This document shows, in pieces, positions 30,133 to 53,151 of a DNA stretch of 64,000 bases (its first letter is position 1; every line of letters begins with the position of its first letter). The notes beneath the pieces were generated by a model that worked only from the letters and a program-made list of their open reading frames with translations, made no database searches and was not told where the DNA came from. Both the position numbers and the translations under genes were made by a program. The stretch is from a virus. The DNA lies in IMG/VR virus record IMGVR_UViG_3300022744_000001, positions 194,022 through 258,021 of that record; one strand, written 5' to 3'.

Positions 30133-30173
30133 GACCATGGTCATCGTGACCATGGTTATCGGAACCATGGTCC
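30133..30173 (+). promoter_or_regulatory. three tandem 15-bp units each containing the palindrome (G)ACCATGGT(C); candidate operator array
   Basis: ACCATGGT occurs at 30134, 30149 and 30164 with exact 15-bp spacing, directly upstream of the NAD-operon regulator. Confidence 0.4.
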
Positions 30174-30943
30174 TCAACACCAGGGTAGTCATGTATCGTT
30201 ACAAATATCCGCGACCGTCGGTTGCTGTGGATCTCGTCACCTTTGGGTACGACGCGACCCAGGCAGAGATCAGTGTCCTACTCATCAAGCGCAAGCACGA
30301 TCCCTTCGAAGGGAAATGGGCCTTGCCTGGGGGGTTTGTCGAGGTTGGAACCGAGGACGATTTCTCGGGGTCAAAGCCTTCGAACTACGGGGAGTCGCTC
30401 GAGGACGCTGCGCGTCGTGAGCTGAAGGAGGAGACTGGGGCGGAGCCCGAGTACATCGAACAGCTCGGGACGTTCGGGGACCCCAATCGTGATCCTCGCG
30501 GGCGAGTCATCTCGGTCGCCTACCTCAGCCTCGTGCGCTCCAAGGACCTCACTGTCAAAGCCAGCTCGGATGCAGCCGAGGCGGTGTGGTGGCCTTTGAA
30601 GTCTGCCCTTCGCCAGAAGTTCGCCTTCGACCACAACACCATCCTGAATCAGGCCGTAACTCGACTTCACTCAAAGGTTCGGTACGCGCCAATCGGGTTC
30701 AACCTTCTCCCGCAGAAGTTCACCTTGCACGAGCTGCAAGAACTCTACGAGGCGCTTCTCTTGCGCCAGCTCGATAAGAGCAACTTCCGAAGGAAAGTGC
30801 TCTCCGTGGGGATTCTGGCCGAGGCCGGTCAACGCGTCCACGGGAAGCAAACCGTCCAACTCTACCGATTCGACAAGCGCGCCTACGACAAGGTCAGCGC
30901 TGCTGGCTTCAATTTCGAACCCAAGTTCGTGAAGGGGAAATGA
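30137..30943 (+). CDS. Nudix hydrolase domain + C-terminal winged-helix (NrtR-like ADP-ribose-responsive regulator)
   Basis: Nudix box GGFVEVGTEDDFSGSKPSNYGESLEDAARRELKEETG. C-terminal FTLHELQELYEALL...DKSNFRRKVL resembles the NrtR wHTH. The real start is probably the ATG at 30191. Confidence 0.6.
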   Translation: MVIVTMVIGTMVLNTRVVMYRYKYPRPSVAVDLVTFGYDATQAEISVLLIKRKHDPFEGKWALPGGFVEVGTEDDFSGSKPSNYGESLEDAARRELKEETGAEPEYIEQLGTFGDPNRDPRGRVISVAYLSLVRSKDLTVKASSDAAEAVWWPLKSALRQKFAFDHNTILNQAVTRLHSKVRYAPIGFNLLPQKFTLHELQELYEALLLRQLDKSNFRRKVLSVGILAEAGQRVHGKQTVQLYRFDKRAYDKVSAAGFNFEPKFVKGK

Positions 30944-32355
30944 TCATGCTTCGACCCAACCTCGCACTCAACACCGACTCCTACAAGCTCTCGCACCCGT
31001 GGCAATACCCTGACGGGCTCGAGTACATGCAGTCCTATTTCGAAAGCCGTGGTGGCCTCTTCGGAAAGACCATGAGCCTTGGCTACCAGGGGTTGGCCAA
31101 GACCAACCTGCTCGACCCGGTCACCAAGGACGACGTGGAGGAAGCCAAGGAGGTCGCGGAGGCCCATGGCGAACCTTTCGAGTACGGCGGCTGGATGCGC
31201 ATTGTGGACAAGTTCGAGGGCAAGCCCCCCATCCGCATCTTGGCCGTGCCCGAAGGTACTATGGTCCCGACGCACAACTTGCTGATGCGGGTGGAGTCCA
31301 TGGACAAGGAAACGGCGTGGCTCCCCGGGCACGTCGAGTCCATGTTGGTCCGCCTTTGGTACCCGCAGACGGTCGCGACTCTCTCGCACTACATCAAGCG
31401 GGACATTCTCGAGGCCCTGATCAAGTCGTCCAACGACCCCTGGGGGGAGATCCTCTTCAAGCTGCATGACTTCGGGGCTCGAGGGTGCAGCTCGCTCGAG
31501 ACGGCGGGTATCGGCGGTATGGCGCACCTGGTCAATTTCCAGGGCACCGACACCATCGAGGCTCTTCGCTACGTCCGGAAATACTACGGCGAGTCGATGG
31601 CGGGGTTCTCCATCCCCGCGGCGGAGCACTCGACCATCACGAGCTGGGGCCGGGAGAACGAACTCCTCGCCTACCGGAACATGGTCAAGCAGTTCGCGAA
31701 GCCCGGCAAGTTCGTGGCGTGTGTCTCGGACAGCTACGACATCTACAACGCGGTTCGTCTCTGGGGCAGTGAACTCCGCGAAGAGGTCAAGGCCAGCGGC
31801 GGCACCCTGGTCATTCGTCCTGACTCCGGCATCCCCGTCGAGGTGGTCATGAAGTGCCTCCGCATCCTGGAAGACCAGGTGGGCATGACCAAGAACATGA
31901 AGGGGTACAAGGTCCTCCCGTCCTACTTCCGCCTGATCCAGGGTGACGGGGTCAACCGCGACTCCATCCGCGAAATCCTCGCCGAGATGCTCGCGAACGG
32001 CTACTCGGCGAGCAACATCGCCTTCGGCATGGGTGGCGGCCTCCTGCAACAGGTCAACCGCGACACCCAGAAGTACGCCTACAAGTGCTCGCAGGTCATC
32101 ATCAACGGGCAGCCCCGTCGCGTCTTCAAAGACCCGGTCACGGACCAGGGCAAGAAGTCGAAGGCAGGCAACTTGGACATCGTGTTCGAGAACGGGCAGT
32201 TCAAGACCATCGAACTCGAGCCCGGCACCTCTCTCAGCCGCAACACGGCACTCAAGCCCATCTACGAAATGGGCAAACTCTTGGTAGATGAAAAGTTCTC
32301 CGACGTGCGGAAGCGTGCTGACAGCGACCTCGTCGAAGGCTACGGAAGGGCATGA
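30940..32355 (+). CDS. nadV: nicotinamide phosphoribosyltransferase (NadV/Nampt)
   Basis: LALNTDSYKLSHPWQYPDG...YFESRGG matches the NAMPT N-terminus. 471 aa, ATGA-coupled to its neighbours. Confidence 0.85.
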   Translation: MIMLRPNLALNTDSYKLSHPWQYPDGLEYMQSYFESRGGLFGKTMSLGYQGLAKTNLLDPVTKDDVEEAKEVAEAHGEPFEYGGWMRIVDKFEGKPPIRILAVPEGTMVPTHNLLMRVESMDKETAWLPGHVESMLVRLWYPQTVATLSHYIKRDILEALIKSSNDPWGEILFKLHDFGARGCSSLETAGIGGMAHLVNFQGTDTIEALRYVRKYYGESMAGFSIPAAEHSTITSWGRENELLAYRNMVKQFAKPGKFVACVSDSYDIYNAVRLWGSELREEVKASGGTLVIRPDSGIPVEVVMKCLRILEDQVGMTKNMKGYKVLPSYFRLIQGDGVNRDSIREILAEMLANGYSASNIAFGMGGGLLQQVNRDTQKYAYKCSQVIINGQPRRVFKDPVTDQGKKSKAGNLDIVFENGQFKTIELEPGTSLSRNTALKPIYEMGKLLVDEKFSDVRKRADSDLVEGYGRA

Positions 32356-36110: not shown

Positions 36111-36744
36111 GGCCGGTGGGAGGGGCACTCGAACCCGGGCCTTGGTCCTGGCCGGGAATGCGCCGAATGCCCATGATCATCATCCTCCCCGCTGCCTCGT
36201 GCTGGGAGTGGCTGTCCACCTGCAAAACGACATTGACCACGGTGCGACCCAGCCGCATCCAGGCTTGCTCGAGCGCCTTAACCCCCTCGTTGACGTCGTG
36301 GACCAATGAGTGCATCTCCTCGGAGATTTCGCAGTTCGAATCGTGCAGCAGCTCCACAAACAAGGACGCGATATCGATCAACAGGTCGTGTCGCTCCTCG
36401 GGGGAAGCCCCGCTGAACTTGCGCACGCTTTCGAGCAGGTCCGGGGACGTGAACAGGTCGTCCTTGTGGATGCGCCCACAAGCCCCGCATACCTCACTGG
36501 GAGGGGCCCCTTTACTCCGCCAGATGCTGGCCGCAGATGTCACCACCTCCGAAACGGTCTCCTCCCCACGACGGGAGACAACCACTGTGACGACGGGGGC
36601 CCAACCAGTTTTGGACTGCGCGAGCTTGATGTCCTTGATCGTGCCCTCAATCCGCAATCCGCCCGCATCTGTTTCTACTTCTGCCCCAATCGCGAGATCT
36701 TGTTCTGCCATGTTTTCTCCGTGACAATCGTACACCGGAATCAA
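36103..36744 (-). CDS. hypothetical protein
   Basis: 213 aa. Confidence 0.4.
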   Translation of the reverse strand: MIPVYDCHGENMAEQDLAIGAEVETDAGGLRIEGTIKDIKLAQSKTGWAPVVTVVVSRRGEETVSEVVTSAASIWRSKGAPPSEVCGACGRIHKDDLFTSPDLLESVRKFSGASPEERHDLLIDIASLFVELLHDSNCEISEEMHSLVHDVNEGVKALEQAWMRLGRTVVNVVLQVDSHSQHEAAGRMMIMGIRRIPGQDQGPGSSAPPTGLN

Positions 36745-37445
36745 CGGCGTCTCGTTTTCTTGCGCTTCGACGTTTCCGCTTCCCTTGCGGCCGTGACCAG
36801 ACGAGCTTGGTCTTGACGAGCTTGGTCTTGCTCTTCCGCCTCTTTGGCCGCGACGATGGCGGCCCGGTTCATGTGAGCGCGGTCCATCGCCTCGTCGCCC
36901 GTGATTCGCTCATAGGGGACCTTGTTGTCCCGAAGAGCCCGGACACGTTCGATCTCGTCCTCCGAATGAACCGTTCCGCCCGCGTTCAAGTCGATGTACC
37001 AGGAGTACACGTCGTTGATCGTCTTGAGTTCGTTCACGTGCCACCGGAAGCGGCACTGCATGATGTCGAACCCGTCCGTGTACTCCCGATGGTAGTGGCC
37101 GAACGCTTTGATCTCGTTGCTCAGGTAGCCAATGACTGCATCAATACGCTGCTTGCCGTCCACGAGCACGTACCAGCACTTTGGGTCGTTTTTGTCCACG
37201 AACCCCTGCCACGTGGGGCAGTTCGTGTAGATGTCCTTGCCCGACTTGCCGCCGCTCAGGATGTACTCGACGAACCGAGTTTTCTGCGCCTCTGTCCAGA
37301 CGTTCCCTCGCTGGAAGTTGGGGTTGACGTCCAGGCCGTAGTCCATCACCTGGCTGTAGTAGTATTTCGCAAGGTAGTTCCACCCCACGTCAACGGCGTA
37401 CAGCCCGGCACTGGGGGTCATCTGGGGGATATCACGATAGCGCAT
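36741..37445 (-). CDS. DUF262 (ParB-like nuclease domain, DGQQR motif) protein
   Basis: NFQRGNVWTEAQKTRFVEYIL...LVDGKQRIDAV. A 15-bp tandem repeat (QDQAR x2) sits in the C-terminal coding region. Confidence 0.6.
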   Translation of the reverse strand: MRYRDIPQMTPSAGLYAVDVGWNYLAKYYYSQVMDYGLDVNPNFQRGNVWTEAQKTRFVEYILSGGKSGKDIYTNCPTWQGFVDKNDPKCWYVLVDGKQRIDAVIGYLSNEIKAFGHYHREYTDGFDIMQCRFRWHVNELKTINDVYSWYIDLNAGGTVHSEDEIERVRALRDNKVPYERITGDEAMDRAHMNRAAIVAAKEAEEQDQARQDQARLVTAAREAETSKRKKTRRR

Positions 37446-37484: not shown

Positions 37485-37985
37485 CTATACCGCTTTGAAG
37501 CTCTGCGCCTTCTTTTGAAGGGCTTCGGCCACAATCGGGTGGACATAATAGCTCACGTCCGCGCCCCAGCTCGCCAGCTCTTTGACGTTCGTGGAACTCA
37601 CGAACGACTGTTCCGGTTGGGTCATCAGGAAGATCGTGTCGATGCTCGGGCAAAGCTGGCGGTTCACATGCGCGATCCCCATCTCAGCCTCAAAGTCGGC
37701 GATGGCGCGCAGCCCACGAATGATGGTTTTGGCCCCTACCTGCTTGCAGAAGTCCACAAGAAGGCCGCGGAAAGGCATCACCGTGACCTTGGGGATTTTC
37801 TCGGCCACAAAAACCTGGGTGATGAGTCGAACGCGCTCCTCTTCGTCGAAGAACGGCTTTTTCTTGGAATTCATCAGAACCCCGATCACCAACTCGTCCG
37901 CGATCTCAAGACCTCGCGTAGCGATGTTGAAGTGTCCGTTGGTGAACGGGTCGAAACTGCCTGCGTAAGCCGCGATCTTCGTCAT
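37485..37985 (-). CDS. coaD: phosphopantetheine adenylyltransferase (CoaD/PPAT)
   Basis: AYAGSFDPFTNGHFNI, IRGLRAIADFEAEMGIAHVNR and IFLMTQPEQSFVSSTNVKE align closely with E. coli CoaD along its whole length. Confidence 0.85.
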   Translation of the reverse strand: MTKIAAYAGSFDPFTNGHFNIATRGLEIADELVIGVLMNSKKKPFFDEEERVRLITQVFVAEKIPKVTVMPFRGLLVDFCKQVGAKTIIRGLRAIADFEAEMGIAHVNRQLCPSIDTIFLMTQPEQSFVSSTNVKELASWGADVSYYVHPIVAEALQKKAQSFKAV

Positions 37986-37996: not shown

Positions 37997-38236
37997 TTAG
38001 TTTGGGAGTCTCCCCTTCATACCCCGGCCCTTGGGAGTGGCAAGCTCTCGCCGGAGGTCTTCCTTGATCATTTCCAGCTGCTGAGGTGTGGGCTCAGCGC
38101 CGCCGACCCTGATTTTCACTGTGCCTTCGTGCCCGGTGGGCTCCACATCCACCAGATAGGGGGCCACACGCCAAAGGCGAGCGATGCGCTTGCGAAATGC
38201 CTCGAGCTTTGGGTTCACAGCAAATGCTCCGTACAC
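37997..38236 (-). CDS. hypothetical protein
   Basis: 79 aa. Confidence 0.35.
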   Translation of the reverse strand: MYGAFAVNPKLEAFRKRIARLWRVAPYLVDVEPTGHEGTVKIRVGGAEPTPQQLEMIKEDLRRELATPKGRGMKGRLPN

Positions 38237-38305
38237 GAATCCTCCAGTGAGGCATTAAGCCTCTCACAAGGAGAACGCGCGAGCCCACCGAAATCTATAC
38301 CGGGT

Positions 38306-38743
38306 TCAGCGTTTCCACCGCAGAGACTTGGGTTTATCGCTGGGCGCCGGTTTGGGGGGTTCGGGCACCTTGGGTGGCGGCACGATCTCGACCCGCTTTG
38401 GCAGCTTCTTGGGCTTTGGTCGCTTCTTGGGGCGAGGGAGGCGGGGAGGGGCGGGGAGGTAGTCGTCCCCCGGCTCTGGCGTGCGCCTGGGCTTGCCGTT
38501 GGTCCGGCGCTCCGGCTCCTGGGGCAGCTCAACGTACTTGTCCCGGTTCTTCCGGAACTCCTCCGGGTCTTTGTAGACGATCTCACCGGTCTCCTTGTTC
38601 TTGACCTTCACGGTCTTGCGCTTGCCACGGGCGAATCTCTCCATGACTCGGAGAGCCAACTCGAGGTCCCCTGCGGGCAACCGAACAAGATGTGCGAGAA
38701 CATCCACCACTAGGGTTGAGCCGACAAAACGATCAGCGCCCAC
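38306..38743 (-). CDS. hypothetical protein with basic P/K-rich tail
   Basis: 145 aa. Confidence 0.4.
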   Translation of the reverse strand: MGADRFVGSTLVVDVLAHLVRLPAGDLELALRVMERFARGKRKTVKVKNKETGEIVYKDPEEFRKNRDKYVELPQEPERRTNGKPRRTPEPGDDYLPAPPRLPRPKKRPKPKKLPKRVEIVPPPKVPEPPKPAPSDKPKSLRWKR

Positions 38744-39038
38744 CCGGGTACATGCGTTTCCAGGCGTCCCACTCGACGTTCACCTGAAATCGGCCGAGCT
38801 TCTCGTTCCAGAAGAATGCAGGGTGAGTGACGCGGGCCCCGAGCTTGTTCACGCTCTCCTCCGCCAAAACCCGATTGGCCTGCTCGAGGTCCAACGCGGT
38901 CAGGTCGATACGACCCGTCGAGGCATCCACCTCAACCACCTGGAACCACGCGCTCTCGGTCGTCTCCCAACCCGCCTTCGTAGGGTCCGGGGTCGTTTTC
39001 GAGTACGAGAATTTCTGACCAATCTTCGGCAGTTGCAT
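38733..39038 (-). CDS. hypothetical protein
   Basis: 101 aa. Confidence 0.4.
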   Translation of the reverse strand: MQLPKIGQKFSYSKTTPDPTKAGWETTESAWFQVVEVDASTGRIDLTALDLEQANRVLAEESVNKLGARVTHPAFFWNEKLGRFQVNVEWDAWKRMYPGGR

Positions 39039-39046
39039 GACCGTAC

Positions 39047-39427
39047 CTACACCGCTTTACGCAGGACCAGCACCTTCTGGCCGCCCCGGTCTTCGATCAT
39101 GGCTTCGACTTTGAACGCCTGTTTACAGAACTCCCCGATGAGGTTGAGCTTCTGCCCAAAGGTGGTCTCAAAGATGCAGCCGAATTTCTCGCCGATGTAC
39201 GCCGCATTGAACTCCTGAGCGAGCGGCTCCCCCACATGCGTGTTGGCCTCGGTGAAGTCCTGCCCATTGGCCATGGCTCTCTCGCACAACTGAATGTATT
39301 CGTTCATGAATCCAGCGAACTCGATGAACGCGTGGTTCCCGATGCGAGTGGCTCCCGTGTAGAAGCCGCTCGAGAGCTGCCTCATACCCGCAATCATCCT
39401 TTGAAGTTCCGCCTTTTCGTAGATCAT
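39047..39427 (-). CDS. hypothetical protein
   Basis: 126 aa. Confidence 0.4.
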   Translation of the reverse strand: MIYEKAELQRMIAGMRQLSSGFYTGATRIGNHAFIEFAGFMNEYIQLCERAMANGQDFTEANTHVGEPLAQEFNAAYIGEKFGCIFETTFGQKLNLIGEFCKQAFKVEAMIEDRGGQKVLVLRKAV

Positions 39428-39504
39428 TCCCCGTTTTTACGTGGGTTCCTGACCAGGCGCAAGGCCCACGGTGTCAGAGGGGTTGTACGGAAAGGGACTG
39501 CAAC

Positions 39505-40062
39505 ATGAGCTTCATTGGCATCAAAGTGCCTCACGAGGTCGGTCGTTTGCTTCACACCATAGAGGTACCGGGCGAAAAGGTACCTCTCCACGAGTTCCAC
39601 GTGACCCTCCTCTACCTGGGCAAAGAAGTGCCCATTGAAACCTTGGGCAAGGCCATCGTGGCCGCGGCCGAAGTCGCGGAGTCGTACCGCCCCTTCCGTT
39701 GCACGCTCACGCAAACCAGCTCTTTCCCCAAAGGCGATGACGGGGTACCCATCATCTGTCCTGTGGACAGCCCCGAACTCCACGAACTCAATACGCAGCT
39801 CAAAGCAGCTTTTGACGCGGCGGGAGTGGACTACTCGAAAAAGTTCCCCGACTACAAACCGCACGTGACGTTGGCCTACTCCGACGAGGTCACAGCGGAC
39901 ACGCTGTTCGGACCACTCGAGTGGTCCGCCTACGAGATGGTGCTCTGGGGCGGGGACGCGGGGGATGAGCGTCTTGCCACCAACTTCCCATTTGCCTTGC
40001 CCACGACGGTAGCCACGAACCAGCAGCTCGTACGCCTCGCCATGGCGATGAAGAAGAGCTAG
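39505..40062 (+). CDS. 2H phosphoesterase superfamily protein (LigT-like)
   Basis: Two H-x-T-x motifs are present: FHVTLLYLG and PHVTLAYS. 185 aa. Confidence 0.65.
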   Translation: MSFIGIKVPHEVGRLLHTIEVPGEKVPLHEFHVTLLYLGKEVPIETLGKAIVAAAEVAESYRPFRCTLTQTSSFPKGDDGVPIICPVDSPELHELNTQLKAAFDAAGVDYSKKFPDYKPHVTLAYSDEVTADTLFGPLEWSAYEMVLWGGDAGDERLATNFPFALPTTVATNQQLVRLAMAMKKS

Positions 40063-40526
40063 CTGGCTTCCGCTTCAGGCTCAGCCGTGGGCGGGACAAA
40101 CGGGCCCACAATCGCCTCGCACTCCGCTGCGAACTTGGCCGCCTTTTCGGCATCTGCGATCCTGTATGTCGCCGGGTATTCGACCACCATGTCGAGGATG
40201 CCCTCGGAGGCCAGGTACTCTTTGCTGAAGATGCGGATGGACGACGCTGCGTACTGGGTAGCTTCCGCCAGCTCCTTCACGGTCATCGGAGCCGAAGACT
40301 GCTCAAGCACCCGAATCACCCCAAGTGACACTGTGTAAAAAGCCTTGTGGTCTTTCGGGTTGTAGGACTTCTCCACCGTCGCTTCTTGCCCTTTATCCTG
40401 GGTGTGCGAGCTTGTGTCGAAGGAGGGCTGAAACTCGGCCGGGCTTTCAGAACCCCGAAAAATACGGGCGGAAAGGCCGGTCAAGGTTTTGCCAATGGCG
40501 TTTCTGACGAGGTTTCTGAACGACAT
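40059..40526 (-). CDS. hypothetical protein (possible winged helix)
   Basis: 155 aa. Confidence 0.4.
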   Translation of the reverse strand: MSFRNLVRNAIGKTLTGLSARIFRGSESPAEFQPSFDTSSHTQDKGQEATVEKSYNPKDHKAFYTVSLGVIRVLEQSSAPMTVKELAEATQYAASSIRIFSKEYLASEGILDMVVEYPATYRIADAEKAAKFAAECEAIVGPFVPPTAEPEAEAS

Positions 40527-40891
40527 AGTATTGACTTATACACCAGATTTAACGATTCCCTTTCAGTCGAGGAGGATGGTCTTGAGTATCCTCAGACGGC
40601 TTTGCCAGGCAGCTCGAACAATCTCCCCTAACGCTTATGTGAAATTCACGGCAAAAACAGGAACCAACGGCGAAGAACTTTGGAGTGGAACCATTGGGGT
40701 TGGCGACGCAATCATCACCGAACACACAGGGAGCCTTGAGGAAGTCATCGACCAGCTTTCTTACAAGCTCACGAGGCTATCGACCGCGGTCATTGACCGA
40801 CTGTCTCGGGTAACCCCCGTACCCGGAGCCTTAAAAAACAACGGCCAGGATCAGCAAGATCCTGGCCGTGAAGGGGAGCCTTGACTCGAGG

Positions 40892-42322
40892 TCAATCCTC
40901 GTCGTCTTCGTCCTCATCTTCGTCGTCGTCTTCATCCTCGTCTTCGTCGTCGTCCTCTTCGTCGTCCGAGTTATCCTCGTCGTCGTAGTCGTTGCCTTCG
41001 TCCTCGTCGCCCTCTTCGTCGGCGTCCTCGTCGCCTTCGGCTTCCTCTTCCTTGTCCTCCTCGATTTCGTTGTACTTGAAGAAATCGTAGACCTGGGAAA
41101 GGGTCATGGGCTGATTGAACTCGGCTTCGTCGCCCTCGGAGAGGCGGGCGTAAACTTCCTGCGCCCTCTCCACGCTCAGCGGTCCGATGTAAACCTGCTT
41201 CGACAAACGACCCGTGCGAAGCAGCGCGTCGTCGATCTCCTGCATCTTGGCGTTTGTGGTGCAGATGATACGAAGGTTCAAGGCGCTACCCAAGATACCA
41301 TCGCTTGCATTGAGTAGGGCGGAGATGGCTGCCAGGTTGGCCTCATCGTTGTCCACCACTGGGCCCACCGTTTTGAGAAGTGCGTTTTGCGCATCGATGA
41401 GGATGGTCGCCACTTCAGGGGTCAACATTTGCTTGGCAAGAAGGCCGCCGATGAGGTCGAACAGCTTCTGGAACTCCTTGACCAACGAGGATTCCTTTTT
41501 GCGAGGAACCAGCGCTCGGTCGGCATCCTCGATGAGAAGCACGATGGGCTTTTCGACCCCAATCATGCTGCGAGCACGGATGAGGGTAGGTACGAGGTTC
41601 GGACCGGCCAAGTGCTCGACCATGCCCGCCGGGATCAGAACGAACACGGCGTCGTAGACCTCGTGCAAGAGGCCCCGGATGAAGAACGTTTTGCCGGTGC
41701 CCGGTTCGCCCTGAATGATGACCAAACGGCCGATGGGGGTGGCGCGTTGCAGGTCGTCCACGATGAAGTCGAAAGCATCGACCACATCGGCTTCGTAGTT
41801 GTCACGCTCGATGGGAACGCCCGCAAGGCCCACTTCACCGATCTCGATGCCGTTGGCCCCCTGGGCAAGGGAGTAGATGGGCTGGCGAACGAACTCGGGC
41901 AACAGATGGTCCCCGAGACGCTTGTTGACGTCCTCGAACGTCTTCCGGTTCGTGGAGACCACGCGGATGTCGTATTTGTTATCCAGACCGGTGTGGATTT
42001 TGACGGCGCCCTCTGGCCAGAAAAGCCAGGTTTCACTCGTGCCACGCCCGAAGATGGGCACATCTGCGAACGGAGAGCGGGCTCCCGTGATAGATGCGAT
42101 GGCCTCGAAGAGCTTCTCCTGCCCCTGCTCGTCGGACTCCTCGATCAGCACTCCACGGCACCCACCCGAGAACACGGTGAGGTTGTTTGCGACAGCATGG
42201 TCAACGAGCATCGTCGCCGCAGGCCCATACTCCTCCAGCACCAGTTTCCCTGGAGCCCACCAATCCAACTTGGGAGGCTCTTTCGGCGGCTCGCGTCGGC
42301 TCTTGTCGTTCTTGGTTGCCAT
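40892..42322 (-). CDS. classic AAA-family ATPase with poly-acidic C-terminal tail
   Basis: Walker A IIQGEPGTGKTF, Walker B VLLIEDAD, sensor-1 CTTN and SRH ALLRTGRL are all present. About 70 C-terminal residues are almost entirely D/E. Start taken at MATKNDK (42322). Confidence 0.7.
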   Translation of the reverse strand: MATKNDKSRREPPKEPPKLDWWAPGKLVLEEYGPAATMLVDHAVANNLTVFSGGCRGVLIEESDEQGQEKLFEAIASITGARSPFADVPIFGRGTSETWLFWPEGAVKIHTGLDNKYDIRVVSTNRKTFEDVNKRLGDHLLPEFVRQPIYSLAQGANGIEIGEVGLAGVPIERDNYEADVVDAFDFIVDDLQRATPIGRLVIIQGEPGTGKTFFIRGLLHEVYDAVFVLIPAGMVEHLAGPNLVPTLIRARSMIGVEKPIVLLIEDADRALVPRKKESSLVKEFQKLFDLIGGLLAKQMLTPEVATILIDAQNALLKTVGPVVDNDEANLAAISALLNASDGILGSALNLRIICTTNAKMQEIDDALLRTGRLSKQVYIGPLSVERAQEVYARLSEGDEAEFNQPMTLSQVYDFFKYNEIEEDKEEEAEGDEDADEEGDEDEGNDYDDEDNSDDEEDDDEDEDEDDDEDEDEDDED

Positions 42323-42504
42323 GATTTTCTCTTCTTTTCGTCTCCGGAGGCGTCGAGCCTCCCGCCTTCCCGTACACCAATCACATGCTGAACTTGGGCT
42401 TTTGCCCGCATTCGCCTCAAAAAAGCCACGAAACGGCAGCGGAGCCGGTAGGTTTGCGCTGGGAAATCCCCGAGCTGAGCTAAACCGCCCTTGGCTAAGT
42501 TGAG

Positions 42505-42735
42505 CTATTTGCTGGGTTTCGGTTCTGAATTTGGGAAAATGGAAGCAATGAGGCAGCCCAAGTGATAGGGCACTTCCCGGTCTTCCTCTTTGGTGGCCGC
42601 CGCGAAGGGCAGAACTACGCCCCGGTCTCCATGGCGTATCGGTTCTTGGCACGCAAAACAGGGTTTTGACGGGGTGGACACTTGCTGCCCGGTTTCACAC
42701 ACCCCTGCCTTCCACGGCGGCCCGAACCACTTCAT
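42505..42735 (-). CDS. possible small Cys/His protein in long divergent intergenic region
   Basis: 76 aa ORF (CFACQ...HLGC). Weak support. Confidence 0.2.
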   Translation of the reverse strand: MKWFGPPWKAGVCETGQQVSTPSKPCFACQEPIRHGDRGVVLPFAAATKEEDREVPYHLGCLIASIFPNSEPKPSK

Positions 42736-43804: not shown

Positions 43805-46042
43805 CTACTCAGCGGCTTCGGCGAAGTTCCCCGGACCAACAAGACCAACCAAGTGCTGACGCGCGACCCGGTACGTGTTCTTCGCGGTCTGGATCTCGGC
43901 CCGAATGGCCGCGCTCTCGAGGTTGCGATCAATGGTGTTGATGAGGTCGTCGGGGGTGATTTCAATGCCGTTCTCCCGCAACATGCGCTCGAGCTTGGCC
44001 TGACGCTCGAGCGAGAACTTGGAGCGGTCAAACTTCGTCCCCTCCTCCTGCAAGAACTTCACGACCTCTTGAGCCTTCTCTGGCCTGCGGTTCACGAAGT
44101 TGCGCATGTTCTTGCGCCAGAGGTCGTCGGCCATCTTGCGCACGGTGTCGCCCACGGCCCCCTCGAGTTTGGTTGAAGCATCGGTCCATGCCACGTCCGA
44201 GAAATTCGGGGACAGGGGCAAGTACGACAAGGAGCGGCGGAGCAGCTTCACACGGTCCACATGAGCCAGCTCGCCCACCAGAAGGACCTTGGCGAAGCGG
44301 CGGATGATGGGCATGGACATGCGCTCGGGATGGTTCGTCGCGCCCCACACGGAGATACCCGAGTAGGAGAGCACGCCGTCCATGAGAATCTGGAACTCGG
44401 TTGTGAGGTTCGTACCCCCGAACGCTTCGTGTCCCTGATTGCCGTTGAGCACCGTGTCGATCTCGTCGATGGAGATGAACGCTTGGCGCTCGGTCTCCTT
44501 GTGGAGCTGCAAGGCAGCCTCGAACAGGCGCTTGGGGTTCTTCTCGGCCTCACCCTTCCAGCAGGTGAGGAAGTCGGAGCCCTGGGCGAAGATGGTGAGC
44601 GCATTCCTCTCGCTGCTGATGGCTCGGAGAGCCTCGGTCTTGCCACACCCCATGGGGCCGACCAAGAGCACGTTGCTCTTGTCGGTCTTGCCGCTCGGGC
44701 TCGTGGCCCGGAAAAGGTCGGCGTACATGGACGAGTCCTTCGCCTGCTCGACCATCTCCCGAACTTCGTCGAAGCCCGACCCCACCAGGTCCCCGAGCGA
44801 GACCTTGGGCTTGAGGCCCGGGATGACCTCGAGCGCTCCAGGGGCCTCCCCCAGGAAGGAGTTGCCCGCCCCCACCTTGCACACGTAGAACGAGTTCTCG
44901 TCCCGGTGGATCTTGTACCACTGGGCCTTGCGTGCGAGCACGAACTTCACGATTTCCTGCCCGCTCTTCTCAGTGAGGAGTAGGCCCGAGATGGTCGAAA
45001 TCGTCTCGTTGCGGAAGTCGATCTCCATCTGCTCTTCGGGACTCTTGAGGCCAACCTTGTCCCTCTCCCGAACGTTGCGGGGGTCAAGCTCGCTGACCGA
45101 ACGGAGAGCCTCTTTGAACTCCGACTCATTCATGAGGCGGCGCGGGGGCTTGCCTCCAGTCACGCGGCGGATCTTCTCGGCCGCCGTGTGAATCTTGGCC
45201 TCGATTTTCTCCGCCCCTTCCCACATGGAGGTGAGGTTTTCGGAAAGGAAGTCGATGATTTCCCCGGGCTCCTTCACGAACCCGCCGAAGAGGCCACCAC
45301 AGAGGGCGTCGGCCAGGATCGTGGCCTTGCGCTGGGTGTAAACGCTGATCTCGTCCGGCTTCTTGCCGTCCTGGATTTCACCATGCGCGTCCGCGTTCTC
45401 GTAGATGGAGATGGCCAGGTCCGTACGAACGGGGTCACCGTGAATTTTGATGCCTTCCACGCTGTGCCGGTGTCGAAGCATCTTGTGGTACATCTCGAGG
45501 TGGAAAACCACGCCTCGAGCAATAGACACCACCAGGTTTTGCAGGACAGCGGCGTTCTCAACCCCTTCCACGAAGCGCTGCAAAGGCTCCTGGTTCATCT
45601 GCACCAGAAGCACGAACGCTTGCAGCTCCTCTCGGGTCGTCGGGGGTTTGACGTCGCCGAAGAGCATGAGGTTCATGGGTTGAATCGCATGCACCGTGTC
45701 GCGGAGCGCGTGAAATCCGTTCTGAATTGCCCGGGAGATGCTGAGGATGAGCGCCACGAAGTTGCCTGCGCCCATCGTGTGCTTGAACTGCTGAAACCAG
45801 TCCTCTTGCTGGTTCATGTCGAAGGGGTTCTTCGTTCTGAGCGAGTTCTTGGCCTCTGCGACCATCGCGCTGTAGGTGTCCCCGATCTCCTCGACGCGCT
45901 CATCGAATTCTTCGCACAACTTGTCGAGGAAAGCCCCGGTTTCACGAAGGCCGTCGTAGTCGAAGTCCAACACCAGGCCCACGAGATCCGTGAACTGGGC
46001 CGGAGTGATAGATACTTTGGAAACCATTTTGTCGATGTACAT
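43805..46042 (-). CDS. large classic AAA-family ATPase with about 480 aa unique N-terminal region
   Basis: Walker A VLLVGPMGCGKTE, Walker B FISIDEIDTV and sensor-1 GATNHPERM are present. Start uncertain: the track's extreme end (46075) would be TTG; the first in-frame ATG is at 46042, with another at 46027. Confidence 0.65.
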   Translation of the reverse strand: MYIDKMVSKVSITPAQFTDLVGLVLDFDYDGLRETGAFLDKLCEEFDERVEEIGDTYSAMVAEAKNSLRTKNPFDMNQQEDWFQQFKHTMGAGNFVALILSISRAIQNGFHALRDTVHAIQPMNLMLFGDVKPPTTREELQAFVLLVQMNQEPLQRFVEGVENAAVLQNLVVSIARGVVFHLEMYHKMLRHRHSVEGIKIHGDPVRTDLAISIYENADAHGEIQDGKKPDEISVYTQRKATILADALCGGLFGGFVKEPGEIIDFLSENLTSMWEGAEKIEAKIHTAAEKIRRVTGGKPPRRLMNESEFKEALRSVSELDPRNVRERDKVGLKSPEEQMEIDFRNETISTISGLLLTEKSGQEIVKFVLARKAQWYKIHRDENSFYVCKVGAGNSFLGEAPGALEVIPGLKPKVSLGDLVGSGFDEVREMVEQAKDSSMYADLFRATSPSGKTDKSNVLLVGPMGCGKTEALRAISSERNALTIFAQGSDFLTCWKGEAEKNPKRLFEAALQLHKETERQAFISIDEIDTVLNGNQGHEAFGGTNLTTEFQILMDGVLSYSGISVWGATNHPERMSMPIIRRFAKVLLVGELAHVDRVKLLRRSLSYLPLSPNFSDVAWTDASTKLEGAVGDTVRKMADDLWRKNMRNFVNRRPEKAQEVVKFLQEEGTKFDRSKFSLERQAKLERMLRENGIEITPDDLINTIDRNLESAAIRAEIQTAKNTYRVARQHLVGLVGPGNFAEAAE

Positions 46043-46074
46043 GGCCAACCAGTACACCGGCAGGTGTAAAGGCA

Positions 46075-47295
46075 ATGCACATGGACCAGTTTGTTCGGCG
46101 AAAATTAACCGAGCTGAAACCCCACCCTAAGAACGACGCATTCTTCCATGACCTGCGCCTATCCCCTAAATACCCGCTTGTACGGGAACAGGTTTGCAGT
46201 GGCGAGATCCAAAACCCGCTCACTGTCCTGTCGGACGGCACGGTTGTATCGGGCCACCTTCACTATCTAGCCGCTCTTGAGCTTGAGGTAGAGGAAGCTC
46301 CCATTCAGCTTTACGAGGGGAACTGGAACGAGGTGCACGAGCTGGAGTTCTTGCTCCAAGCGAACGCCCAACTCGGGTACCTGGGGTTCGAACAGATAGC
46401 GATCGCGTACTCTCTCCTTTTGGGAGGGGCGATTGAGAAGCCCAAGGACGCCAGCAAAGGCGGGCGGCCGAAGAAGGGGGCTGCCCCATCTCCGGAACGG
46501 CGACAAAGCACCAAAGAGCGGGTAGCGCGGCTCCTGGGGGTTTCTGCGAAAACCGCAGAGCACTTGCACCTGATCTACCTGACGCCCGGGGTCCCTGCGG
46601 ACATTCACGACGCTGTTGAAAACCGAATGGTCCCCATCGCCCTCGCGGCGGATGCGGTGCAGTTCAGCATCCATGAGGCCCTTCGACGCAACCCTCACAC
46701 GAAATTCGTCGTGGTGGACCCGATTGACGTGCGTACGTACATCGAGACGCCCCCAAACAAACGACGCACGAAAATGGTGGACCTGCTCAAGGGCAAGCGT
46801 CCCCGCCCCCTCCCTCCCGTCATGCTCGAGGGGAAAGAAGTTGCTGACTACCACAAGCGGGTCTTTTCTTCGGTCCCGCCCCCCTTCCATCCAAAGCAGA
46901 GCGTGCAGAGCATGATTCGAGACGGGGTCCACTGGGATGATCTCGAGGTGCCAGACAACGACATCCCGCTTCACGAGGCCATTGGGCGCATTCGGGCTCG
47001 ACTCAGCAAGGCTTTCGAGGCCCCCGTCCTGGTACACGAGGACAAGGTCGAGGAGGCCCTAAACTCGCTCCTTTTGGAAGTTGCGCGGCTCATGAAGTCG
47101 CACCACGGCAAGGAAGTCTCGGTCCGCATCGGGAGCGCTCCAGTAGCCCCCAAACCGCGCCCCAAAGCCACCGTGAAACCCAAGGCAGAGTCAAAGCCCC
47201 CTTCGAAGCCCCCGGCCCCCACCGTCTTCGCTACCGAGGTCGAGTTCATCGTCTCCTTGCTCGGGCTGGAGACCGTCCAGGCACTAGGGCGCTAG
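46075..47295 (+). CDS. ParB N-terminal-domain-like protein
   Basis: LKPHPKNDAFFHDL...LTVLSDGTVVSGHLHYLAA resembles the ParB/Srx fold with its GxxR-type motif. Confidence 0.5.
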   Translation: MHMDQFVRRKLTELKPHPKNDAFFHDLRLSPKYPLVREQVCSGEIQNPLTVLSDGTVVSGHLHYLAALELEVEEAPIQLYEGNWNEVHELEFLLQANAQLGYLGFEQIAIAYSLLLGGAIEKPKDASKGGRPKKGAAPSPERRQSTKERVARLLGVSAKTAEHLHLIYLTPGVPADIHDAVENRMVPIALAADAVQFSIHEALRRNPHTKFVVVDPIDVRTYIETPPNKRRTKMVDLLKGKRPRPLPPVMLEGKEVADYHKRVFSSVPPPFHPKQSVQSMIRDGVHWDDLEVPDNDIPLHEAIGRIRARLSKAFEAPVLVHEDKVEEALNSLLLEVARLMKSHHGKEVSVRIGSAPVAPKPRPKATVKPKAESKPPSKPPAPTVFATEVEFIVSLLGLETVQALGR

Positions 47296-47718
47296 AAGCT
47301 TGTTCACGCGGCCCACGATACCGTAGCGGAGCCCCTCCACGACGGTATGAGACTGCCCCCGCAAAACCTCCTGGCAGCTGGGGCAGGTCCAGGGATACGT
47401 CGGGAACCCCTTGCCCCACTCCAAGAAGTCCACCACCTTGGCCCGGCACCGGTGATAGATCGTCAGCCGAAGCTCGAGGACTTCGTCCCCATGCAAGGCC
47501 ACGAGAAACGCCAACCCCGCCCCTCGTGAGATCCGACAGTGAGCCACCAGCTCATCCAAGGAGATTTGCGACCCGACGCGTTTGCCTTGGAAAAAGCGGG
47601 AAATCAACCCCCACTGGTCAGTTGAAATGTTGGTTAGTCTGGAGCGGTCGAAGTGATACGTGCTCACAGATGAATGATTCGTTTCGGAAGTGTGAACTTT
47701 TTTGCTATCGGGCACCAT
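47284..47718 (-). CDS. hypothetical protein
   Basis: 144 aa. Confidence 0.4.
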   Translation of the reverse strand: MVPDSKKVHTSETNHSSVSTYHFDRSRLTNISTDQWGLISRFFQGKRVGSQISLDELVAHCRISRGAGLAFLVALHGDEVLELRLTIYHRCRAKVVDFLEWGKGFPTYPWTCPSCQEVLRGQSHTVVEGLRYGIVGRVNKLLAP

Positions 47719-47776
47719 AAACGCTCCGCTTCATGGTGTATCCCCTTAGAACGTTAGCTGTTTTTGTGGGGAATCG

Positions 47777-48391
47777 GTGCATACGAGATTGCCAGTTGAA
47801 ATGGGGATGCGCTTCAAGGAAGCGGGGGTTGAGTACATCGTGTGCTGTGTGCTCAACGACCGATCCCTACTCAGCATCCCAAAAGAGATGGTGGATAAGG
47901 TCCAGGTTGAAGCTGGGGTCGAGGATATCCTGTGGCCGCTCGGGGCCTATGTCATCTTTCAGCCAAACGGCGTGACTCTCGCCCTTTTCGGAACCATCCA
48001 AGGGGAACGGGTCCACCGGGGAGGGATCTTCGATCCAACGGACATGGGCCAAGCGGTCTCGAGCATGTGGCAGGCGCTTCGTGACACGCCAAACGAGACC
48101 CTTCAAGAGAATCTCAAGCAGCTCGTACACGAGACGTTCGTGGTGAGGGAGGTTTTCAAAGAAATCACGCCCGAAGCTCTGGACTATTTCCAGGGCCAGT
48201 ATGTCCAGCTTGCGTCGGACGTCCTCAACGTTTCCCCGAAGCGGGTGCGAGCGCGGCTCTACTTCATCGAGACCGGCCATATCACCCCCGAGCTATACTT
48301 GGACAATGTCCTTTTGAACTCGGATGATGACAGGTTCAAGGTCGTGACGAACCACTTCGAAAACTACCTGTCCACTGCCAAACCCAACTAG
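47777..48391 (+). CDS. hypothetical protein
   Basis: 204 aa. Confidence 0.45.
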   Translation: MHTRLPVEMGMRFKEAGVEYIVCCVLNDRSLLSIPKEMVDKVQVEAGVEDILWPLGAYVIFQPNGVTLALFGTIQGERVHRGGIFDPTDMGQAVSSMWQALRDTPNETLQENLKQLVHETFVVREVFKEITPEALDYFQGQYVQLASDVLNVSPKRVRARLYFIETGHITPELYLDNVLLNSDDDRFKVVTNHFENYLSTAKPN

Positions 48392-48402
48392 GAGCGCCCC
48401 CA

Positions 48403-48663
48403 ATGCCATCAGGCCACTACACGAGTCTTTCCGCCCGCGGGCCGATGGGGGATTTGCTGTGGTACACGGCCGATGGCACTTGGAGCGCCGACCCGGCAGA
48501 CAAGTACATCTTCAACCAGACACAGTTTGCGAACCATACGGCGATTCAAAACCTGCCCGCTGGGTATCACACGACGGTCAACTTTGAGAACGTCCCGCTG
48601 CCTCCTCCGCCGCAGGACTCGGACCCTGGGTGCTGGACCCCAGTGGTGCCGGACGACTGTTAG
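48403..48663 (+). CDS. hypothetical protein
   Basis: 86 aa. Confidence 0.3.
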   Translation: MPSGHYTSLSARGPMGDLLWYTADGTWSADPADKYIFNQTQFANHTAIQNLPAGYHTTVNFENVPLPPPPQDSDPGCWTPVVPDDC

Positions 48664-49297
48664 CGCGGATCAACTCTGCCACCGTGGATGGTTGCGGCTC
48701 CTCTCGGTAAATAGACTGCATGAACGTCAACTCGTAAAAAGGGTTGAACCGATGGTATGCAGCATAGCTCGAGACCTCCAAGCTGAGGTAAACGGGCCAG
48801 CGGTCTTCCTTCGTGAGGGCATGCCAAACCTTCGCCCTCCGAGCCCATTCTAGGTCTGAAATGCGCTCCGGTTTGTCGGTCTGATTCTGGTAGTGGTACT
48901 CGGAAAGGCGGGGGTCTTCGTCGAGGAAGTCCAGCACATTGCGCATCATCGAGCTACAGTACGGAATCAGGTAGAGATGTTTTCCGTACTCGCGGAACGT
49001 CAAAGACACATCGAAGTCAAAAAAGCTTCTCTCCATCGAGACCGAAGCCTTCTTGTACCCCTCGCGGAAAAGCTTTTCCACAACGAATGCTCGAGCCCGC
49101 TTATCGTGGCCTTTATAGAGGGTCAGGGCTTCCTGGTACTCCTCCGAGTCTAAGCGTAGGCCCTGCATGAACTCGACGAAGAGCTTGTGCACTCGCTCTT
49201 TGACCTGTTCGGCGCCGAGCCGGTAGGTGTCCGCGGTGAACTTCCAGAGGTCGCGTTTGCGATTGAGGCGGTAGGCACGCCAAACCTTAAGCGACAT
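48578..49297 (-). CDS. hypothetical protein
   Basis: 239 aa. Confidence 0.45.
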   Translation of the reverse strand: MSLKVWRAYRLNRKRDLWKFTADTYRLGAEQVKERVHKLFVEFMQGLRLDSEEYQEALTLYKGHDKRARAFVVEKLFREGYKKASVSMERSFFDFDVSLTFREYGKHLYLIPYCSSMMRNVLDFLDEDPRLSEYHYQNQTDKPERISDLEWARRAKVWHALTKEDRWPVYLSLEVSSYAAYHRFNPFYELTFMQSIYREEPQPSTVAELIRANSRPAPLGSSTQGPSPAAEEAAGRSQS

Positions 49298-49562
49298 TGT
49301 CTTCCTTCATCTCTTCAACACTGTAAATCCCAGCGACCCAAAGAGCACCCTGGATGAACCCGAGCCAACGCATGGTTTTATCCCAGCGTTCGGGGCCGAA
49401 CGTGAGCATCTCATCGATCATCCACACTAGGTGATCGAAGGTATCTGTGCTTGGAGTGTCACGAGCGAAGAGATTGGGGCAGCGCTTGGGGGTGGCACCC
49501 TCTCCCTCAGTCAATCGGGCTCGGTACTTGAGCAGTACATTGCGAACTTGATCCTGGGTCAT
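49287..49562 (-). CDS. hypothetical protein
   Basis: 91 aa. Confidence 0.4.
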   Translation of the reverse strand: MTQDQVRNVLLKYRARLTEGEGATPKRCPNLFARDTPSTDTFDHLVWMIDEMLTFGPERWDKTMRWLGFIQGALWVAGIYSVEEMKEDNVA

Positions 49563-49918
49563 AGACGGCTCCTCACGACGTTGACGATGGCGCTGGCGAC
49601 TCGTTTGGCGTTGTCATCTTCCCCGGTGAGGTCGCCAAGGAGCATGGCCACCGCGGTCTCAGTGCTCACGGGCAGAGCGCGCAGAACTCCAGCGTCGATG
49701 CTCTCCCGCATCATCCCGAGCGCGATGGAACTCGCGTCATGCCCAAAGATGCCTTCGCAAAGGGCATTCATGTGAGCCCAGCTCGAGACGTCTGGCCGAG
49801 GCGGCGGGATGGTTGTCGGACGGGCCGGGGGAGGGGTACTGCGACGCACGGAAGGCCGCTTTTTCGGTTGCTCGCTCATTGCATCGTCTACACCGCTGGT
49901 GTCATACACACATGGCAA
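49559..49918 (-). CDS. hypothetical protein
   Basis: 119 aa. Confidence 0.4.
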   Translation of the reverse strand: MPCVYDTSGVDDAMSEQPKKRPSVRRSTPPPARPTTIPPPRPDVSSWAHMNALCEGIFGHDASSIALGMMRESIDAGVLRALPVSTETAVAMLLGDLTGEDDNAKRVASAIVNVVRSRL

Positions 49919-50892
49919 TCGAAAAGGCTTTCGTTCGTTTCAACGGCGACGGGCAACCCGTTTCAGAAGCGAGCTACTCCCTTTGCGTGGGGCTCAAGGC
50001 CCAAGGGATTGTCCCGTTCACGAAATTCGAACAACTCCTCGGCCATCTAACCCCCGAAACTCTTGTCCATGGGTGGGTCGGGGACGTGCGCCGTGCTGTT
50101 GATAAGCTCGGGTTCCCCAAACCATCGCTCGACTCCATGCCCGTTGATGCTGAGCTGCTCGGCCGGAAGATGTGGCGCACCACGTTGAAGGAGGTACGGA
50201 ACAACGCCAACTCCTGGCCCGTCTTCATCAAGCCCGAGGCCCACAAGATCTTCACGGGGTACGTCATCCGGGATTTCGCGGGCCTCATTGAGACCTCTGA
50301 CCTCCCAGACGACCTGCCCATCGTGGCGCAAACACCGGTGGAGTTTGTCTCGGAGTACCGATGCTTCATGCATTGGGACAAGCCTATGGGCATCCGCCAG
50401 TACAAAGGGGACTGCACCGTTTTCCCTGACGTGAAGGTGCTTGCCCAAATCACGGCTCGGCTCCTACGCACGCAAACCCTGCCTTGCGCCTACACGATTG
50501 ACCTCGGAGTCCTGGCGAGCGGGGAAACCGTCGTGGTTGAACTCAACGATGGGTTCTCCATGGGCGGCTACGGTCTTGCCTGGCCCCTGTACCTGAACAT
50601 GGTCACGGACCGATGGGTGGAGCTTACGACGCCTCGAGCCGTTTGGGGGAACCACCTCGTAGACCTCTACCTACGCGACCGGATCACCTACAACCAGTTC
50701 CAGATCCGTTTCCTGGACGCGGCCCATGCGGTTCACGAGCAGGAAACCCGAACGCTCGACGAAAAGCGATTGAGCCATGCGCATCTGATCTGGTGCGAGT
50801 ACACCTCATTCGACCCGGCTGATGAGTCCTGGTTCCGAGGGCAACTCACCAGACGTCTCGAGCTGAACCCCACATCCCTTTGGATGCCATGA
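49912..50892 (+). CDS. ATP-grasp fold-like protein
   Basis: VFIKPEAHKIF, EYRCF and VVVELNDGFSMGGYG are consistent with the ATP-grasp nucleotide-binding core. Confidence 0.45.
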   Translation: MAIEKAFVRFNGDGQPVSEASYSLCVGLKAQGIVPFTKFEQLLGHLTPETLVHGWVGDVRRAVDKLGFPKPSLDSMPVDAELLGRKMWRTTLKEVRNNANSWPVFIKPEAHKIFTGYVIRDFAGLIETSDLPDDLPIVAQTPVEFVSEYRCFMHWDKPMGIRQYKGDCTVFPDVKVLAQITARLLRTQTLPCAYTIDLGVLASGETVVVELNDGFSMGGYGLAWPLYLNMVTDRWVELTTPRAVWGNHLVDLYLRDRITYNQFQIRFLDAAHAVHEQETRTLDEKRLSHAHLIWCEYTSFDPADESWFRGQLTRRLELNPTSLWMP

Positions 50893-51263
50893 AACTGCAC
50901 CACGGCGTTCGATTCCTCGACCTCAGCGTCGGAGCCCTCTGGGAACTCCGCACGAGAAACGCAAACCGCCTCTGGGTGTGTCGAGCGATCCGACCCGCTT
51001 GTATCGTGGCAGAGTGCCCTCAACAGCTCTTCAAGGAATTCGCCGAGGAAGAGATCCTCGAGCACATCCTCTTGGACCCCTTCAAACCGGAATCCACGAA
51101 CGTTCAGGACTTGAAGATCGAGCTGGCCCACCTGATTGACGAGGCTGTCAAGCGGCTACCCTTGAGCCAACAACGGGAGGTCTACGCGTCTCTCGCCCAA
51201 GTAACCAAGGCTCGACACGAAGTGGTCTGCTTGCGGCTTGGGGTCAACCCCGAGCAATCTTGA
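50880..51263 (+). CDS. hypothetical protein
   Basis: 127 aa. Confidence 0.4.
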   Translation: MDAMKLHHGVRFLDLSVGALWELRTRNANRLWVCRAIRPACIVAECPQQLFKEFAEEEILEHILLDPFKPESTNVQDLKIELAHLIDEAVKRLPLSQQREVYASLAQVTKARHEVVCLRLGVNPEQS

Positions 51264-52014: not shown

Positions 52015-52139
52015 CCTAGTACACCGCCGCTGAGTTTCAACCCGGGTTTAGTCGAGCCCGCTGCACTTCGCGCGCAAATTTCATAGACAACTACCAACCC
52101 CCTTGCTACGGTTCCTAGCAATTAGCTGGGAGTCGGTAC

Positions 52140-52685: not shown

Positions 52686-52729
52686 GTTCCCGTGCCCGTC
52701 ACCCCGGAGAACCCCGGTGTTGTTAGGGC

Positions 52730-53143: not shown

Positions 53144-53151
53144 GCGGGTGG

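Follow-up and report, generated by a model that had tools for sequence, protein, structure and literature searches.

A predicted virus-borne 2H phosphoesterase related to polyvalent-protein modules and Acb1, and its possible role in phage counter-defence

The DNA analysed here (the window) comprises 64,000 nucleotides of the viral record IMGVR_UViG_3300022744_000001 in IMG/VR (positions 194,022 to 258,021). At positions 39505–40062 of its plus strand lies an ATG-initiated open reading frame (ORF; stop codon included) for a 185-aa protein, which an earlier note, made from the sequence alone, had described as a LigT-like 2H phosphoesterase with dual HxTx motifs. It is a single plus-strand gene flanked by minus-strand genes. 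The GC content at third codon positions (GC3 = 0.76) is in line with that of the coding frames of the window, and the divergent intergenic region upstream (39428–39504, 77 nt) holds a purine-rich stretch, GAAAGGGA (39490–39497, plus strand), which lies 7 nt before the ATG and may serve as a Shine-Dalgarno sequence. A scan for promoters and terminators near the gene yielded no sigma-70-type promoter match. In Pfam the protein was best matched by PF13563 (2_5_RNA_ligase2; E 3.2e-15, 56.9 bits), followed by PF02834 (LigT_PEase; E 6.9e-10, 39.4 bits) and PF23474 (Acb1; E 1e-8, 35.4 bits against a gathering score of 27). The Acb1 match is confined to model positions 27–113 of 144 and is out-scored over the same region by PF13563. 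The protein was assigned to phrog_755 in PHROGs and had no match in PADLOC.

An AlphaFold2 model built with 50 homologues (pLDDT 91.5, pTM 0.82) displays the bilobed alpha/beta fold of 2H enzymes. The catalytic tetrad is intact and the fold is confident, in full agreement with the initial description. The first motif, H32-V-T34-L-L-Y37-L, occupies positions 39598–39618 (plus strand; core HVTL at 39598–39609), and the second, F114-P-D-Y117-K-P-H120-V-T122-L-A-Y125, positions 39844–39879 (plus strand; core HVTL at 39862–39873). Conservation was assessed in 150 family representatives: H120 is present in all of them, H32 in 148, T122 in 146 and T34 in 142, with Ser in six more. Y125 is found in 138 representatives and Arg at that position in a single one. 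Position 117 is aromatic in all 150 and position 114 in 149, while position 37 is Tyr in 91, Phe in 10 and His in 16. The hhalign alignments pointed to a further site, F74-P75 (39724–39729, plus strand), where F74 is invariant (150/150). Given the Pfam E-values, the motif conservation and the number of homologues (see below), the 2H assignment is not a matter of chance; the ORF is a real gene, and its product is probably an active enzyme.

Downstream of the second motif, conservation, the alignment with ThpR and predicted secondary structure delineate a family-specific segment, W140...E144..L-W148-G-G-D151-x-G-D154 (39922–39966, plus strand), in which W140 is kept in 107, E144 in 100, W148 in 109, G150 in 135 and D151 in 98 of the representatives. 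According to the alignment and the model, it forms a beta hairpin with a Gly/Asp-rich loop that replaces the 'W..V.E..LY.S' segment of ThpR; the segment may close over the pocket. One more strand follows, and then a C-terminal helix (residues 168–184; 40006–40056, plus strand), modelled with lower confidence (pLDDT about 72–76). In relatives this helix is of the 'ALVRLA' or 'RVAxRF' type, a short 'RVAxRF(L)' helix standing at the end of many family members.

The same protein is recorded, without a difference, on a contig of 448,224 bp. A word-indexed search yielded 318 homologues at E<=1e-3, and an exhaustive profile search 583 cluster representatives (50% identity) at E<=1e-10, 203 of them at E<=1e-30. 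The metagenomic contigs that carry the homologues reach 511 kb, many being 100–511 kb long, and among the 120 homologues listed none is on a contig larger than 0.52 Mb. When 185,579 species-representative genomes were scanned, only two full-length relatives with at least 38% identity were retrieved, both on contigs of metagenome-assembled genomes (MAGs); the remaining matches were chromosomal LigT-like genes of Caulobacterales (27–32% identity) and 2H modules inside very large ORFs. The range of contig sizes and the near-absence from species genomes thus indicate that the family is essentially virus-borne, being nearly confined to phage-sized contigs and very large phages. A DNA similarity search with positions 38000–42000 against 50,697 phage records gave no match, and the phage therefore has no close cultured relative among them.

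Extra domains, nearly always C-terminal and placed after the terminal helix, occur in about 33 of the 150 representatives. Seven multidomain relatives carry an HExxH motif (P0203, P0207, P0217, P0259, P0328, P0244 and P0284; L010:6001–7716), accompanied in five of the seven by a downstream ExFAE motif, and HExxH-bearing relatives give weak Pfam matches to zincins (Peptidase_Mx1, ATLF). Other fused domains are ParB_N (P0215, P0235), DnaJ (P0256) and LRV.

In order to place the protein within the 2H superfamily, the family profile (A1) was compared by hhalign with alignments of known groups. The highest score, 129, was obtained with the 2H modules that giant polyvalent proteins contain (probability 99.3%, E 4.8e-20; 91 columns aligned at 41% identity), for which modules from six ORFs of 686 to about 3,460 aa were used. 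The Acb1 alignment came next (97.8%, E 9.5e-13; score 82.6), roughly level with a single LigT-like protein of Brevundimonas (97.6% over 130 columns; score 78.3), and the enterobacterial ThpR alignment was far behind (10.6%; score 26.5). Pfam score patterns agree with this order. The protein of the window scores (in rounded bits) 57 with PF13563, 35 with PF23474 and 39 with PF02834; the corresponding values are 40–64, 23–32 and 24–38 for the polyvalent modules, 53–66, none or 21, and 79–95 for cellular LigT proteins, and 13, 203 (202.7) and none for Acb1 of phage T4. In addition, PF23474 is matched by 49 of 50 family members at E<=1e-3. By sequence, then, the polyvalent 2H modules are the closest kin, Acb1 and one bacterial LigT group come next at about the same level, and E. 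coli ThpR is last. Ranking of the structural model gave a different result, with the cellular ThpR/LigT proteins nearest: 5h7f and 5h7e (score 18.6; second measure 0.74–0.75), 1vgj (17.8) and 4qak (17.4; 0.68–0.72) all preceded Acb1 (7t27 and 9q2y; 11.8 and 11.0, about 0.5–0.6) and the poxvirus cGAMP phosphodiesterase (PDE; 9bkq, 10.7).

The profile order, the Pfam pattern, the loss of the ThpR arginine, a TIGR02258 score below the cut-off and the absence of the C-terminal hallmarks of Acb1 lead us to assign the protein to the mobile-element (polyvalent-type) 2H branch, as a member that stands alone and as a relative of Acb1 that is itself neither Acb1 nor ThpR. A general statement that the family is closer to Acb1 than to ThpR had to be abandoned in view of the Brevundimonas control, and holds only against ThpR of the E. 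coli type. A conserved LigT-like gene with an HxTLAY motif, to which the Brevundimonas protein belongs, was seen at L019:5989–6525 (plus strand) and at about 60 other Caulobacterales loci (L016–L089) on the chromosomes of Brevundimonas, Caulobacter and Hellea. These genes look like a cellular LigT subgroup, which may be closer to the viral branch than other cellular proteins are.

The giant ORFs that contain polyvalent-type modules were found in L013 (3,460 aa, running off the end of the locus), L014 (2,314), L015 (2,543), L018 (2,746), L046 (1,703) and L012 (674), on MAG contigs of Acidobacteriota, Planctomycetota and Verrucomicrobiota; their 2H module starts with 'F-S/G-S-T-Q' and contains 'FPDYKPHVTLAY', and their architecture is the classic one of polyvalent proteins. 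Some of these ORFs are on multi-Mb chromosomes, and hence probably belong to integrated elements.

As to function, the earlier note had offered two alternatives, an eraser of cyclic-nucleotide signals and a tRNA-repair enzyme. These are the same two that are found in the literature. For the 2H enzymes of jumbo phages, roles in cyclic-phosphate processing or RNA repair have been discussed (PMC7824862), and there is precedent for a signal eraser in that viruses have adapted LigT-like enzymes time and again to the breakdown of immune nucleotides (PMC11410667, PMC9117128). The evidence gathered here shifts weight towards the eraser, without settling the matter. We tentatively favour, over RNA repair, a counter-defence phosphodiesterase acting on nucleotide signals. 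The enzyme belongs to a superfamily branch carried by viruses and mobile elements and, by analogy, would be independent of metal. By comparison with the ThpR and Acb1 structures, H32 would be the general acid and H120 the general base, T34 and T122 would hold the phosphate, and Y125 would take over the transition-state role of Arg130 of ThpR. Y37, F74, F114 and Y117 would stack on nucleobases, forming a pocket for more than one base, and the substrate would be a small nucleotide of at least two bases. The enzyme would cleave a 3'-5' (or 2'-5') phosphodiester, with no metal, via a 2',3'-cyclic phosphate intermediate that is then hydrolysed. Early in infection, such an enzyme could destroy a cyclic or linear oligonucleotide messenger of the host, of the CBASS or type III CRISPR kind, so that the abortive-infection effector would never be switched on.

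Several features of the putative pocket are consistent with this proposal. That Acb1 shares the 2H fold, as stated in the earlier note, is confirmed by its published structure, in which Y12, W74, F107 and W147 are the base-stacking aromatic residues (PMC9117128). The positions of W74 and F107 are filled in our protein by F74 and F114; the position of Y12, F3 in our protein, is aromatic in only 46% of the family, and W147 has no alignable counterpart. The aromatic residue six positions before the second catalytic His (F114) is common to the family, Acb1 (F107) and the polyvalent modules, and is absent from both E. coli ThpR and the Brevundimonas protein. The position of F74 corresponds in the hhalign alignments also to W82 of E. 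coli ThpR, and that of Y37 to the nucleobase-stacking Phe48 of ThpR and Tyr49 of Acb1 (PMC4201822, PMC9117128). Some support for a signal eraser comes from the profile match to Acb1 and from the equivalent of F107, together with the PF23474 match, which exceeds the gathering score over part of the model only and is out-scored by PF13563.

A number of observations weigh against the same proposal. The C-terminal lid of Acb1 (residues 145–152) and E141, which contacts adenine (PMC9117128), have no alignable counterpart in our protein, and neither does W147; the Acb1 profile alignment ends at residue 129 (residue 122 of Acb1), and the C-terminal half of the protein aligns with the strands of ThpR instead, just as the overall fold is nearer to ThpR. 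Among the matches in BFVD, proteins with the name Acb1 appear no higher than places 25 and 43. Since the Brevundimonas protein, with its HxTLAY motif, scores about as well as Acb1, neither the replacement of Arg by Tyr nor closeness to Acb1 is specific to anti-defence enzymes. A Tyr at the position of Arg130 is also the state of Appr>p cyclic phosphodiesterases (CPDases), namely yeast Cpd1 and the Arabidopsis CPDase (PMC4201822); Tyr125 was consequently discarded as a mark of Acb1, being shared by these enzymes and the Caulobacterales LigT-like proteins. Finally, the phage encodes an RNA ligase.

A bolder version of the counter-defence proposal, which we consider rather unlikely as a whole, would see the huge-phage family and the polyvalent 2H modules as immune-signal nucleases of a second lineage, separate from Acb1 and more ancient, with a different substrate range (e.g. 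larger rings such as cA4/cA6, or signals with 2'-5' linkages). The pocket would then be closed by the W-G-G-D loop and the C-terminal helix, in place of the lid of Acb1, and some members, fused to a zincin protease or ParB-like domain, would be multi-tool counter-defence proteins.

The main rival to a signal-degrading enzyme is an RNA 2',3'-cyclic phosphodiesterase that heals RNA ends after the action of host anticodon nucleases or HEPN RNases, so that the phage RNA ligase and a kinase encoded elsewhere in the genome could reseal tRNA or mRNA. We regard this role as unlikely, though less so than the other rivals considered below. The ligase that had suggested it is real: positions 2–304 (plus strand) are the 3' part of a PF09414 RNA ligase gene (Pfam E 4.3e-9), and a 90-kb contig (L001), matching the window at 100% identity over 10.5 kb and extending it by 9.7 kb upstream, provides the complete gene (337 aa; L001:10237–11247, minus strand; 112 bits), with the PF09414 nucleotidyltransferase domain at residues 162–314, after an N-terminal region of about 160 aa. 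The earlier label 'Rnl2-like' is not borne out, as no protein of solved structure, not even T4 Rnl2, is related to the ligase by sequence; no NCBIfam match was obtained either, and the ligase may be of the Rnl2, the Rnl5 or another class. The remainder of the extension encodes a Nudix protein, a DFP/CoaB-like protein and an HNH protein.

Against end healing, the ligase gene is 39 kb away from the 2H gene, and no tRNA gene and no Pnk-like kinase are found in the window and the 9.7 kb upstream of it (74 kb, about 16% of the 448-kb genome). The only Walker-A proteins there are three AAA+ proteins, and the polynucleotide kinase that the earlier note had proposed to look for upstream is thus missing from the 9.7-kb extension. 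No RNA ligase or kinase is near the 2H gene in any of eight contexts, including the called neighbours within 6–8 kb in seven relatives, and no ligase, kinase or phosphatase domain is fused to 2H in 34 multidomain relatives. The score of the protein with the TIGR02258 equivalog model is 46.9, below the cut-off of 65.7. Furthermore, the Arg of HxTxxR, essential for catalysis in E. coli ThpR (PMC4201822), is replaced by Tyr in 138 of the 150 family representatives. The chemistry of the ends also has to be considered. Enzymes of the ThpR type produce a 2'-phosphate, and ligases of the Rnl2 type need a terminal 2'-OH; an end with a 2'-phosphate would therefore be unsuited to such a ligase unless a further enzyme acted on it.

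The genes around the 2H gene bear on a further rival. Across the 77-nt spacer lies a divergent gene for a 126-aa protein (39047–39427, minus strand), and on the other side the 2H stop codon overlaps the end of a convergent gene for a 155-aa protein (40059–40526, minus strand). Beyond these are genes, all on the minus strand, for CoaD, the pantetheine-phosphate adenylyltransferase (37485–37985; 179 bits with TIGR01510, whose cut-off is 103), for a GmrSD_N/DUF262-like protein with a ParB fold and without the usual C-terminal nuclease domain (36741–37445), and for two AAA+ ATPases (40892–42652 and 43805–46075). An identification of the CTP_transf_like neighbour as an NMN adenylyltransferase was rejected in favour of CoaD on the strength of the equivalog match. 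The listed ORF of the first ATPase reaches 42652, its likely ATG start being at 42322, and the C-terminus of this protein (40892–42322, minus strand) consists of about 60 residues, nearly all Asp or Glu (EEDKEEEAEGDEDADEEGDEDEGNDYDDEDNSDDEEDDDEDEDEDDDEDEDEDDED). At the 2H loci of relatives, CoaD directly adjoins the 2H gene in divergent orientation in two cases, a GmrSD_N gene occurs nearby in two and a gene for an AAA protein follows downstream in three; in huge phages related to this one, GmrSD_N-like genes lie at L003:3479–4213 and L009:3604–4293, within a few kb of 2H. As the recurring neighbours are on opposite strands, the arrangement fits a gene order shared within a phage clade rather than an operon.

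A small cyclic-phosphate esterase, acting on Appr>p or cyclic nucleoside monophosphates (cNMPs) to clear by-products or toxic metabolites, would be in line with the NAD+ and coenzyme A genes of the phage, although we consider it very unlikely. In its favour are the Tyr at the Arg130 position, as in yeast Cpd1 and the Arabidopsis CPDase, the nearby genes for a nicotinamide phosphoribosyltransferase (NAMPT), an NrtR-like Nudix protein, another Nudix protein and CoaD, the divergent CoaD neighbours just mentioned, and a NADAR gene 2 kb from the 2H gene in one relative. The NrtR/AraR-like protein, a Nudix and winged-helix regulator (30137–30943, plus strand; 130 bits to 5bs6), is followed with a 4-nt overlap by NAMPT (30940–32355, plus strand; 521 bits to 7yqo). 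The pair resembles an NAD+ salvage unit, such as would be expected in phages under NAD+-depleting defences; in favour of the counter-defence proposal, its presence in the window would suit a phage exposed to abortive-infection effectors of that kind. About 3–4 kb upstream of the window start, at L001:13127–14374 (minus strand), is the gene for a protein of 416 aa that combines a DFP (CoaB-like) region with a class II aldolase-like one; this gene and CoaD are coenzyme A pathway genes of the phage.

The last rival, a Usb1-like RNase that would shorten or cleave the RNA of the host (or of the phage) starting at its 3' end, leaving 2',3'-cyclic phosphates, as an offensive or regulatory weapon, is very unlikely, since no Usb1-specific feature was found, the Usb1 match is weaker than the ThpR match in the fold comparison, the profile similarity to Acb1 is clear and the gene is outside any head-morphogenesis module. 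In Arthrobacter phage Edmundo, a 2H-containing protein is encoded directly after the portal and MuF-like genes, in agreement with what has been published on polyvalent and solo 2H domains (PMC5512222).

The remainder of the window encodes a variety of other proteins, with very frequent strand switches between genes. A 278-aa protein with a DHHA1 domain (9902–10738, minus strand; Pfam E 2.8e-8, no NCBIfam match) could be a DHH-family phosphoesterase of the NrnA/RecJ type, and might act on short oligonucleotides. A pooled domain scan of positions 1–36000 and 46000–64000 revealed a Dam-type D12 methyltransferase, two R2K-clade ATP-grasp proteins, a nucleoside 2-deoxyribosyltransferase, a DUF1848 protein, a 2OG-Fe(II) oxygenase, a CN_hydrolase, a dNMP kinase, a Vsr-like endonuclease and an M15 peptidase. 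A ClpX-like AAA+ protein is encoded at 58453–59733 (minus strand).

Viral 2H enzymes are a recurring means of silencing nucleotide-based immunity, from T4 Acb1 to the cGAMP phosphodiesterases of poxviruses, and the family described here is an uncharacterised, virus-restricted subfamily of this known kind of enzyme, positioned in sequence between cellular LigT and Acb1. Knowledge of its substrate would reveal which host signalling systems huge phages must defeat and could add to the signals known to be erased by 2H enzymes. It would also test a prediction made in 2017 for the 2H modules of polyvalent proteins: the polyvalent-type and solo 2H domains were noted never to be associated with RNA ligases, and were predicted to be RNases or degraders of defence nucleotides (PMC5512222; Iyer, Burroughs, Anand, de Souza, Aravind 2017). 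Were the enzyme to prove a plain phosphodiesterase of RNA 2',3'-cyclic phosphates (RNA>p), the finding would be a routine one.

Among known systems, healing and sealing of the T4 Pnkp/Rnl type, in which kinase and ligase partners are both encoded, has no such pair as its counterpart in the 74 kb examined (about 16% of the genome). The LigT-like PDEs of eukaryotic viruses (avian poxvirus cGAMP PDE 9BKQ, coronavirus NS2a 4Z5V, rotavirus VP3 4RPT) share 14–17% identity with our protein, act in different hosts and on different signals, and no specific motifs shared with them were found. ThpR/LigT (E. coli 4QAK, D. radiodurans 5H7F, T. thermophilus 1IUH; TIGR02258) resembles it in the extended HxTxxF motif, whose aromatic residue, stacking on the terminal base, is matched by Y37; unlike ThpR, the family has Tyr125 in place of Arg130, possesses the extra aromatic residue before the second motif and is almost restricted to viruses. 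With Acb1 (gene 57B of T4; structures 7T26 and 7T27 from Erwinia phage FBB1; PF23474) it has in common the fold, the HxT/HxT tetrad, carriage by phages and a series of local motifs, namely 'VPxxxVP' before motif 1 and 'VP' after it, 'DS..L' and 'F-x-D/E-Y-x-P-H-x-T-L-x-Y', and differs in the C-terminal elements discussed above. A literature search for the 2025 Acb1 structures of Burkholderia phage BCSR5 returned nothing. On these sequence features the protein fits neither ThpR nor Acb1 in its canonical form.

The closest sequence kin are the 2H modules of polyvalent proteins (PMC5512222), with which the protein shares the near-identical stretches 'VDSPELHxLN' and 'FPDYKPHVTLAY' and the same pattern of Pfam scores. 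Like them, the family is carried by phages or mobile elements and, in the eight contexts and 34 multidomain relatives inspected, is not associated with RNA ligases. The protein of the window differs in being a solo domain of 185 aa with a W-G-G-D-x-G-D hairpin and helix of its own, and the six modules accordingly align to its residues 28–130 only. The multi-domain habit of polyvalent proteins has a parallel within the family, in the relatives that bear zincin-like, ParB-like or J domains.

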